From NCBI RefSeq assembly GCF_003018115.1, contig NZ_CP027457.1: 64,000 nucleotides of DNA. One strand, given 5' to 3'. Under the pieces are notes generated by a model. That model did no database searches. It had not been told where the DNA came from and saw nothing but the letters and a program-made list of their open reading frames with translations. A program made the position numbers and the translations under genes. Below, in pieces: positions 45,475 through 50,715 of this stretch (position 1 is its first letter; every line of letters begins with the position of its first letter). This DNA comes from Escherichia coli. Its GTDB lineage: Bacteria > Pseudomonadota > Gammaproteobacteria > Enterobacterales > Enterobacteriaceae.

Positions 45475-48400
45475 ATGGCTTCGACAAATGCGCATCAAAT
45501 AAAAAATAATGATCAAAACTCTTTATGTGGTCTGGGTGACAAAATACGCCGCCTGACCGCCGGAGTTTGTTTATTTACACAAATTTTTTTCCCCGTCATG
45601 GCGACGGCACAAAATGTGGTACATGCTAAACCTCAGACGACAGTTTCATCTGCCCCCCCTCTAATAGAAAATAATACTGTGCCTTACACGCTTGGTGCGC
45701 TGGAATCAGCGCAAAGCGTTGCTGATCGCTTCGGTATTTCACTGGAGGAGCTTCGTCGTCTTAATCAGTTCCGTACTTTTGCTCGCGGCTTTGATAACGT
45801 GCGCCAGGGTGAGGAACTGGATGTTCCGGCAACAACCTCGCAGAAAAGCCATGAGCAACAAAATGCCATACCGCCTGCGAATGGCGAAAACACGCTGGAG
45901 AATCAAATAGCCAGCACCTCGCAGCGAGTTGGCACTCTGCTTTCACAAGATATGAATAGTGAGCAGGCCAGCGGCATGGCGCGTGGTTGGGCGTCTTCAG
46001 AAGCCTCTGGCGCGATGACTGATTGGTTAAATAACTTTGGTACTGCGAAAATCTCTCTGGGTGTGGATGAAGATTTTAGCCTGAAAAATTCGCAATTCGA
46101 CTTCCTGCATCCGTGGTATGACACACCTGATTATCTGCTCTTCAGCCAGCATACCCTTCACCGAACAGACGATCGTACCCAGATCAACACCGGGTTGGGC
46201 TGGCGTCATTTCACCTCCAGCTGGATGTCAGGCATCAACCTGTTTTTTGACCACGACCTGAGCCGCTATCACTCCCGCGCGGGGCTTGGCGCAGAATACT
46301 GGCGTGATTATCTGAAGTTGAGCAGCAACGCTTATATTGGCCTGACCGGCTGGCGTAGCGCACCAGAATTGGATTATGACTTCGAAGCCCGCCCGGCCAA
46401 CGGCTGGGATTTACGCGCGGAAGGCTGGTTACCTGCCTGGCCACAACTGGGGGGAAAACTGGTCTATGAACAATACTATGGCGATGAAGTGGCGCTGTTT
46501 GACAAGAACGATCGCCAAAGTAATCCCCATGCTATTACCGCGGGCCTCAACTATACCCCCTTCCCGCTTCTGACTCTCAGTGCGGAACAGCGTCAGGGGA
46601 AGCAAGGTGAAAATGACACACGTTTTGCCGTTGATCTGACCTGGCAACCCAGCAGTTCAATGCAGAAACAGCTTAACCCGGACGAAGTGGCCGGACGGCG
46701 CAGTCTGGCCGGTAGCCGTTATGACCTGATTGATCGCAACAACAACATCGTTCTGGAATACCGCAAGAAAGAGCTGATTCGCCTGAGTCTGCTGGATCCG
46801 GTGAAAGGGAAGTCTGGAGAAATAAAACCGCTGGTTTCCTCGCTACAGACCAAATATGCCCTTAAAGGCTATAACATCGAAGCCGCTGCGCTGGAAGCTG
46901 CCGGAGGTAAAGTCAGCACGTCTGGAAAAGATATCACGGTCACGCTGCCAGGTTACCGCTTCACTAACACCCCAGAAACCGATAATACATGGTCGATAGA
47001 CGTTACCGCCGAGGATGTAAAAGGTAACCTGTCACGTCATGAACAAAGCATGGTCGTCATTCAGGCTCCGACATTAAGCCAGAAAGATTCTCTGTTATCC
47101 GTTAATCCGCTAACCGTGGCTGCAGATAAAAAATCGACTACCACATTGACCGTTACTGCACACGATTCCGATGGAACCCCGGTGCCGGGGCTGGCGCTGC
47201 AAACCCGCAGTGAAGGCGTTCAGGATATCACCCTGTCTGACTGGACAGATAACGGTGATGGTAGTTACACACAGATACTGACCGCCGGAACGACATCAGG
47301 TTCAGTAACACTGACGCCGCAAATTAACGGTGAGAGTGCGGTAAAAGAATCCATCGTCGTTAATATCGTCCCTGTTGTCTCATCCCGCGACCATTCATCA
47401 ATAACAATTGATAACGTATCGTATTATGCCGGAGACGACATCAAGGTTAGGGTGGAACTGAAAGACGACAGCAATCAACCGGTTGCATATCAAAAAGAGG
47501 AATTGGTAAAAGCCGTTACTGTCGAAAACAGCAAACCTGGCGCCACGATTGTCTGGCACGAAGAGCAGCCGGGGGTTTATGCCGCGAATTATCCGGCCCA
47601 TAAGCAAGGGACTGCACTAAGGGCACAACTTAGCCTTCACAACTGGAATGCTCCACTGCAATCGCATATTTATAACATTGAGGCAAACCAGAATAAGGCT
47701 CGCGTCGCCACATTATCAGCGACAAATAATGACGTTTACGCCGATAAAAAGACATTTAATACCCTCACTATCAACGTCACTGATGAGAGTGATAATCCCC
47801 TGACAAATCATCAGGTCACCTTTAAGAATGAAAAAGGAAGCGCGGAATTTGTCGAACCGCCGCAGCAAAATACGGATGGATACGGTGTTGCCACAATCAA
47901 CATGGTAAGTCAGGTTGCGGAAGAAAATACGATTAGCGCCACGCTGCCAAATGGTTTCTCACAACGGATAATTGCGAAATTCGTTAGCGATTCGAGTACG
48001 CCAAAATTCAAACAACTGGTTGCCGATCCAGATACCATTATTGCTGGCAACAGCCAGGGCAGTACTCTGACCGCCATCGTCACAGACTTTCATAACAACC
48101 CGTTAAAAGATATGAAAGTGAATTTTGTGGCACCTGGTGGCTCGCAACTGGACAACACGACCGCCACAACAGACCAGTCCGGTATTGTGCGGGTGCACCT
48201 GACCAGTTCAAAAGCTGGTAGCTATTCCGTCGATGCCTCGCTTGAGGTGGATAAAAATATTCACCAGTCGGTCACGATCACCGTGGTCCCAAACAGGGAA
48301 CAATCGGTAATGACCTTGAATGCCGGGTCGGGCAGTGCGATCGCTAACAATACAAATACCGCTACCCTGACTGCCAGTGTGAAAGATGTTTATGGACACC

Positions 48401-50715: not shown

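Follow-up and report, generated by a model that had tools for sequence, protein, structure and literature searches.

An intact allele of the inverse autotransporter gene iatD between yjiJ and kptA in an Escherichia coli genome

The inverse autotransporter genes iatA to iatD were defined in Escherichia coli by Goh et al. in 2019 (mSphere, PMC6714894), where iatD is EcSMS35_4876 of strain SMS-3-5, a gene of 5,241 bp. The protein was described as a signal sequence, annotated on the basis of SignalP, followed by LysM, a barrel, Big1 repeats and a C-type lectin cap (PMC6714894). SMS-3-5 IatD was cloned, its surface localisation was observed by immunofluorescence, and its overexpression from an isopropyl-beta-D-thiogalactopyranoside (IPTG)-inducible construct in a K-12 flu mutant led to strong biofilm formation (PMC6714894). 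The complete gene was found in 7 of 126 genomes and in 10% of the ECOR strains (PMC6714894). The corresponding locus of O157:H7 Sakai, ECs5290, is a "putative invasin" on S-loop 288 that Ogura et al. included among the adhesins in 2007 (PMC2323221), and in a 2020 review IatD is counted among the type 5e biofilm factors (PMC7312957). Here we describe the gene found at positions 45475..50715 (+ strand) of a 64,000-nucleotide stretch of E. coli DNA (contig NZ_CP027457.1, assembly GCF_003018115.1), and this whole stretch is called the window in what follows. The gene is an intact allele of iatD, the known E. coli type Ve inverse autotransporter adhesin. We put this reading at a probability of about 0.93, for the identity itself as well as for identity and architecture taken jointly.

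Identity and domain architecture of the gene

The coding sequence (CDS) starts with ATG and comprises 1746 codons plus stop, with zero internal stops in the open reading frame (ORF) list and in the translation. The Prokaryotic Genome Annotation Pipeline (PGAP) of RefSeq has an identical CDS, of equal length and start, which it names "inverse autotransporter IatD". The uninterrupted 1746-aa ORF reported in the original prediction, which was made from the sequence alone, was thus confirmed. When positions 44000-52500 were compared by megablast with 5426 complete E. coli genomes, the best matches were 99.8-100% identical, and in these yjiJ (major facilitator superfamily transporter) and kptA (RNA 2'-phosphotransferase) flank iatD. 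The iatD of strain F8111-1SC3 is a 100% DNA match to the window gene. SMS-3-5 IatD (EcSMS35_4876) is the same gene, with 5241 bp, 1746 aa, and the same locus and domain plan. It is identical to the window protein at 1707 of 1746 residues (97.8%) with 0 gaps, the differences being 39 substitutions and an interrupted C-tract, and a metagenome allele is 98% identical. The window protein is therefore of equal length and high identity to the reference IatD, whose published alleles are >98% identical. The position between yjiJ and kptA is common to the window, F8111-1SC3, Sakai and SMS-3-5, and the gene order in the latter is kptA-iatD-yjiJ-yjiK-pentapeptide-DUF3343. Because it matches the published, named and cloned IatD, the gene is already known and is not new. 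The comparison with the Iat groups of E. coli that had been proposed ended in the gene being one of them, and the statement that its role was not evident was overtaken by earlier work, in which IatD had already been cloned and found to be surface-exposed and biofilm-promoting on overexpression (PMC6714894). The features of the gene are the following.

45475..45609, + strand: putative N-terminal extended signal peptide, aa 1-45, with basic KIRR, hydrophobic LTAGVCLFTQIFFPVMATA, then ATA/Q
45670..45828, + strand: LysM-fold periplasmic domain, aa ~66-118, predicted fold
45916..46743, + strand: inverse-autotransporter beta-barrel, aa 148-423, PF11924
47083..50076, + strand: Ig-like Big_1/Invasin_D3 array, aa 537-1534, Pfam
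Within the array, + strand: nine Big_1/Invasin_D3 domains at aa 537-631, 745-836, 847-938, 946-1041, 1052-1135, ~1153-1238, 1244-1333, 1346-1437 and 1443-1534
50077..50712, + strand: tip module, D4-like Ig and C-type-lectin-like, aa 1535-1746
50452-50454 and 50698-50700, + strand: Cys1660 and Cys1742, within the tip module

The barrel is the most strongly supported part of the architecture. The profile hidden Markov model IAT_beta (PF11924) matched aa 148-423 with E=3.7e-107 and a model coverage of 2-279 of 279, at the place where the barrel had been predicted (aa 150-420). When the protein was compared with PDB sequences by phmmer, the barrel matched those of invasin and intimin, with E=2e-81 for 4e1t and E=1e-65 for 4e1s, and the passenger matched FdeC (4e9l) and Yersinia invasin (1cwv). 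The order of the parts is the inverted one, as the barrel ends at aa 423 and is followed by a C-terminal Ig-like passenger. The long array of Ig-like Big domains was found as nine significant Big_1/Invasin_D3 domains (E<=1e-7) within aa 537-1534; a tenth Ig-like domain has a weak Pfam match at aa 640-714, and one more Ig domain, of D00-like type, may occupy aa 431-536. Pairwise identity among the Ig domains of the window protein is 25-44%, and Tandem Repeats Finder detected no DNA tandem repeats in the array. With such low identity between domains and zero DNA repeats, instability of the repeat number is not expected, in agreement with Goh et al. (PMC6714894).

The signal region, which reads MASTNAHQIKNNDQNSLCGLGDKIRRLTAGVCLFTQIFFPVMATA/QN in the translation, is conserved in YeeJ-type homologues. 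LysM, also part of the original prediction, stood at the level of the predicted fold and did not stand as a Pfam assignment. In a structure model of aa 46-150, aa 68-118 form a beta-alpha-alpha-beta arrangement with a predicted local distance difference test (pLDDT) score of 83-88, while the Pfam LysM match was partial and non-significant (E=0.06, aa 79-99). PF01476 was also absent from the precomputed Pfam lists of homologous N-terminal fragments. The presence of LysM is therefore supported at the fold level, without a significant Pfam match. The modelled domain lies between the putative signal peptide and the barrel, as does the periplasmic LysM of intimin, YeeJ, IatC and IatD.

At the other end of the protein, Invasin_D4 of Pfam matched approximately aa 1564-1624 (E=1.9e-4), and the phmmer alignment reaches the D4-D5 superdomain of invasin (1cwv), placing IatD Cys1660 opposite an invasin Cys. 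The AlphaFold2 model of aa 1501-1746, calculated with an alignment of 30 diverse homologues, had a mean pLDDT of 94. Its top Foldseek match in the PDB was invasin 1cwv (E=1e-13, template modelling score 0.71), followed by intimin 3ncx/1f00 and then by C-type-lectin-like domains (snake-venom lectins, CLEC9A). C1660 and C1742 are the sole cysteines outside the signal region, and both are invariant, representing 2 of the 10 invariant columns of the 30-sequence alignment. These results agreed with the lectin-like C-terminal domain with a Cys pair that had been proposed: a D4-like Ig domain and a C-type-lectin-like domain terminate the protein, and the Cys pair is conserved. Cys1660 and Cys1742 probably form a disulfide, as the analogy to invasin and intimin suggests. 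A full-library search with the tip recovered 276 proteins at E<=1e-3, most of which have the tip domain at the extreme C-terminus.

The domain architecture and the PDB matches place the protein in the intimin/invasin-type inverse autotransporter family, as had been proposed. Yersinia invasin and the intimin of EPEC and EHEC have a barrel homologous to that of IatD and the same kind of tip, in which D4/Ig is joined to a C-type-lectin-like domain and a Cys pair is conserved, but IatD has many more Ig domains, the tips are 15-23% identical, and IatD is not known to bind Tir or integrins. The closest paralogue is YeeJ (2358 aa): the proteins share 49% identity over aa 12-1541 and 39-50% in the tip, and the DNA of the LysM/barrel region is ~77% identical to that of iatD. 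YeeJ shares the LysM-barrel-Big_1-lectin plan but is ~600 aa longer, has more Ig domains and is located beside mtfA/tRNA-Asn. The NCBIfam models IatC, YrIlm, Ilp, intimin, SinH, Cronobacter Inv and YchO all matched the N-terminal half with scores below the curated cut-offs. The N-terminal 838 aa scored 1125 bits with the IatC N-terminal model (NF040978, cut-off 2400), so the protein is not IatC, which is 2459-2965 aa long and variable in length according to Goh et al. (PMC6714894). The scores of IatD with other models were 425 bits for YrIlm (cut-off 750), 415 for Ilp (cut-off 1125), 355 for intimin (NF033627, cut-off 1400) and 307 for SinH (NF033423, cut-off 999). Scores below the cut-offs of all these models make IatD a separate member of the family.

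Poly-C tract and surrounding haplotype

The Sakai locus ECs5290 is orthologous to the window gene, with 98.9% DNA identity and the same neighbours, including espX6 (ECs5295). It differs by a break in the reading frame and is annotated as a 5103-nt CDS that lacks the signal peptide. Over the 5.6 kb aligned, the two sequences show only one indel, of 1 bp, which is located in the following tract, C7 in the window and C8 in Sakai.

45653..45659, + strand: poly-C tract C7, codons 60-62, sets the reading frame

In Sakai, translation from the equivalent ATG ends at codon 66. Tract lengths were counted in the complete E. coli genomes as exact matches of 67/68-nt probes. The window-type sequence background with C7 was present in 112 genomes, among them O145 strains and the type strain ATCC 11775. 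At least 284 genomes, the listed ones including O157:H7, had the O157 background with C8, and 22 had the O157/O55 background with C7. Those listed in this last group included seven O55:H7 genomes, the sorbitol-fermenting O157 strain 493/89, LSU61, a baboon isolate, and at least 10 more that were labelled O157:H7 or O157 or had no label. A non-O157 background with C8 was found in 3 genomes. In the PGAP annotation, iatD is "frameshifted" in the O157:H7 isolate TT12B (C8) and in O145 RM8995-C1 (C6), and intact in TT12A (C7), a sibling isolate of TT12B; the alignment bears out tract lengths of C6, C7 and C8. In SMS-3-5 the tract is interrupted (SSPSPL, compared with SSAPPL in the window). The simplest reading is that C8 in typical O157:H7 is a lineage-specific inactivation that followed the split from O55:H7, with rare slippage or assembly errors elsewhere.

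Goh et al. mention neither frameshifts nor O157 (PMC6714894); we infer that the inactivation in O157 may explain their count of 7 complete genes in 126 genomes despite the 18 phylogroup-E genomes that these included. As a practical consequence, virulence-gene screens by presence or absence will score O157:H7 as iatD-positive despite the frameshift, and strains differ in iatD function through a single-base change in the C-tract.

A second difference among strains concerns the DNA that surrounds the gene. As had been stated in the original prediction, yjiJ and kptA are adjacent in K-12: in MG1655 they are convergent, with 12 bp between them. The equivalent region of the window has the following features.

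40437..50870, no strand: alternative haplotype block compared with K-12, ~10.4 kb, the right edge being the kptA stop codon
Genes of the block: espX6 at 40805-42907, divergent yjiK at 43176-44018, divergent yjiJ at 44086-45264, then iatD at the right end
45265..45474, + strand: yjiJ-iatD intergenic region, AT-rich with a GC content of 34.8%, presumed promoter/regulatory

In blastn comparisons with K-12, the outer flanks were 97-98% identical up to ~40466 and from 50871, positions ~40467-43180 and 45243-50870 were unmatched, and 43181-45242, which include yjiK and yjiJ, were 81-82% identical. The unmatched part on the left contains a gene absent from K-12 for a 700-aa pentapeptide-repeat protein, with a GC content of 34.7%, which is annotated in other genomes as the type III secretion system effector EspX6 (ECs5295 in Sakai). 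The order of the genes in the block is the same in Sakai and SMS-3-5. Taking as iatD carriers the genomes that cover >=80% of the locus, ~638 of the 5426 complete E. coli genomes (~12%) were carriers. The divergent yjiK-yjiJ allele (>90% identity) was found in ~640 genomes, and all others had the K-12-type allele (~81-82%). Linkage of the divergent yjiK-yjiJ with iatD is thus essentially complete. No direct or inverted repeats, insertion sequences (IS), integrase or tRNA were found at the edges of 45265-50871 or of the larger block. Judging from these comparisons, the divergent yjiK-yjiJ, its linkage to iatD and edges free of mobile elements, the unit of variation is the ~10.4-kb haplotype rather than a gene-sized insertion. 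This haplotype was either exchanged through recombination between homologous flanks or kept as an old polymorphism. The insertion between yjiJ and kptA stated in the original prediction consequently stood as to position but not as a clean insertion, given the ~10.4-kb divergent block with espX6. espX6 and the divergent yjiK and yjiJ are also confounders in any association of iatD with phenotypes or phylogroups. The gene itself adds nothing new, and the polymorphism of the C-tract and the divergent haplotype linked to iatD are side observations of modest weight.

The identity of iatD among carriers is 97-100%. Since this internal diversity resembles that of the E. coli core, the haplotype is not recent, and the older or intraspecies acquisition that had been suggested fits these values. 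Escherichia sp. E1V33, E. whittamii and a divergent genome labelled E. coli have yjiJ alleles that share 92-96% identity with the K-12 type; with the window allele, all of these share ~82-83%, and a third allele (strain E69) 87%. The window yjiK-yjiJ is farther from the alleles of the three K-12-type Escherichia-labelled genomes than those are from one another. The yjiJ genes of Citrobacter and Salmonella are ~68-71% identical. A search for the donor with YjiJ gave best matches outside the haplotype of 90-92% at the amino acid level or 82-87% at the nucleotide level, and no closer allele was found. A scan of contigs of species-representative genomes with IatD aa 840-1746 found no orthologue in other species, a weak negative as E. 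coli copies were missed too; these scans use exact 8-mer patterns and miss orthologues below ~85% identity. The type strain ATCC 11775 carries the iatD haplotype, yet neither the IatD nor the YjiJ scan recovered such a copy, so these scans apparently did not cover the main E. coli representative.

Other observations were made on the genes of this region. Citrobacter sp. Cu233 (L027, 12120-15248) encodes a 1042-aa inverse autotransporter, co-oriented with a yjiJ homologue and located 1 kb downstream of it, which is 45% identical to IatD aa 38-737 and unrelated in length. Of the 33 enterobacterial yjiJ loci that were recovered, this was the sole other one with an adjacent inverse autotransporter, and one Citrobacter case is too little to propose an ancestral linkage. 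Near its 3' end, at 42589-42820, espX6 contains a 24-nt (8-aa) tandem repeat in ~9 copies followed by a C8 run. The length of the gene differs between strains (window, 2103 nt; Sakai, 2208 nt; SMS-3-5, 1974 nt), which suggests variation of the repeat number.

Function of IatD and alternative readings

Beyond what this analysis establishes, namely the integrity of the ORF, the order of the domains, the fold assignments and the orthology to published IatD, the mode of action of the protein can be outlined from its family. The ~45-aa signal peptide would direct the passage of IatD through Sec, and the LysM-fold domain would stay in the periplasm and anchor the protein to peptidoglycan. The beta-barrel assembly machinery (BAM) would insert the 12-stranded barrel into the outer membrane, and the passenger would be threaded out with its C-terminus last to form a stalk of ~11-12 Ig-like domains. 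The stalk would present the invasin-like D4 and C-type-lectin-like tip, probably locked by the Cys1660-Cys1742 disulfide, and binding of the tip to a surface or host ligand could then lead to surface colonisation and biofilm. We consider this adhesive role in nature putative, with somewhat better than even chances of being correct.

Several points weigh against these assignments. The signal peptide was assigned by eye from the translation, and the Pfam match to LysM was the non-significant one described above. Upstream of the gene there is no convincing promoter: the lone sigma-70-like match, at 45279-45308, is weak and not above chance. The IatD phenotypes come from IPTG overexpression in K-12, and autoaggregation and binding to extracellular matrix (ECM) were both negative (PMC6714894). 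Finally, iatD is a frameshifted pseudogene in most O157:H7, and it is therefore dispensable in at least this lineage.

Some of the same facts would be expected if iatD were intact but cryptic, that is, mostly silent (for example through H-NS-type silencing of the AT-rich sequence 5' of the gene), drifting towards loss and contributing little in this strain. The intergenic region of 34.8% GC with promoter matches that do not exceed chance, phenotypes obtained by overexpression alone (PMC6714894), the frameshift, found in at least 284 genomes (those listed include O157:H7) and sporadically elsewhere, and the ~88% of complete genomes without the gene are all consistent with it. However, those of the 638 carriers that are not O157:H7 almost always have the complete ORF, the exceptions being 3 C8 non-O157 records and one C6, and protein identity is at least ~98% with constant length, which in an ORF of 1746 codons argues for purifying selection. 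We therefore regard a cryptic gene as a possible but doubtful reading. Slipped-strand mispairing at C7 could instead make iatD phase-variable, ON with C7 and OFF with C6 or C8. C7 occurs in O55:H7 and in at least 10 other genomes of O157:H7 background, compared with C8 in 284; TT12A (C7) and TT12B (C8) both came from faeces in Yokosuka; O145 RM8995-C1 has C6 where other O145 strains have C7; and C8 is also seen in a non-O157 background. Seven C residues are nevertheless short for a contingency tract, variants outside O157:H7 amount to ~1% of genomes, and the interruption in SMS-3-5 shows that the homopolymer itself is not conserved. Homopolymer length is, besides, the commonest error of long-read assemblies, so that single discordant genomes are weak evidence. 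Phase variation of IatD is possible but not favoured, and we consider it unlikely. Similarly improbable is a combination of both observations, in which C7 acts as a switch (ON in the window strain and O55:H7, OFF in nearly all typical O157:H7, with occasional flips) and the block is a colonisation haplotype that was introgressed or anciently maintained.

Two other readings have still lower probabilities. IatD could be an invasin proper, with a tip that binds beta1 integrins and promotes host-cell uptake instead of biofilm or adhesion, since Yersinia invasin D4-D5 (1cwv) is the top match of the tip in both structure and sequence. The identity between the tips is, however, ~23%, and in the phmmer alignment the Asp located four positions past the aligned Cys of invasin is paired with Asn in IatD. 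We take this Asp to be the integrin-binding D911. Together with this substitution, the negative ECM binding of IatD (PMC6714894) makes such a function improbable to a degree slightly beyond that of phase variation. A mobile element or a site-specific event could also have placed iatD alone between yjiJ and kptA, which would fit the 12-bp gap of K-12 and the sharp right junction at the kptA stop codon. Against it are edges at which repeats, IS, integrase and tRNA were not found, a yjiK-yjiJ that is ~82% identical to K-12 between flanks of 97-98%, and the presence of the divergent yjiKJ and iatD in essentially the same ~640 genomes. A gene-sized insertion is disfavoured by this divergence, by the co-inherited espX6 and by edges without a mobile-element signature, and it is the least probable of the readings considered, with very little chance of being right.

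Flanking sequences and other features of the window

The GC content of iatD is 49.2% (50.3% at third codon positions) compared with 50.7% for the whole window, near the average as had been noted. A GGAAGG motif is found 8 nt 5' of the ATG, within the intergenic region 45265..45474, the regulatory function of which is presumed. The hairpin and the repetitive extragenic palindromic (REP) element that the original prediction had placed after the gene were both found.

50733..50762, + strand: hairpin with a perfect 12-bp stem and a 6-nt loop, 18 nt past the iatD stop
50787..50814, + strand: single REP element, REP pattern

The hairpin is a probable terminator; a scan for consensus terminators missed it because of its short T-run. 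The REP pattern occurs at 4 sites in the window, the one after iatD and three others, with 0 expected by chance. The other elements with the same pattern are located at 13228-13295, where they form an inverted pair resembling a bacterial interspersed mosaic element (BIME), and at 57838-57866. In a separate part of the window, 22927-29430, there are three co-oriented ORFs of 1170, 529 and 442 aa, with the sizes of the type I restriction-modification genes hsdR, hsdM and hsdS.

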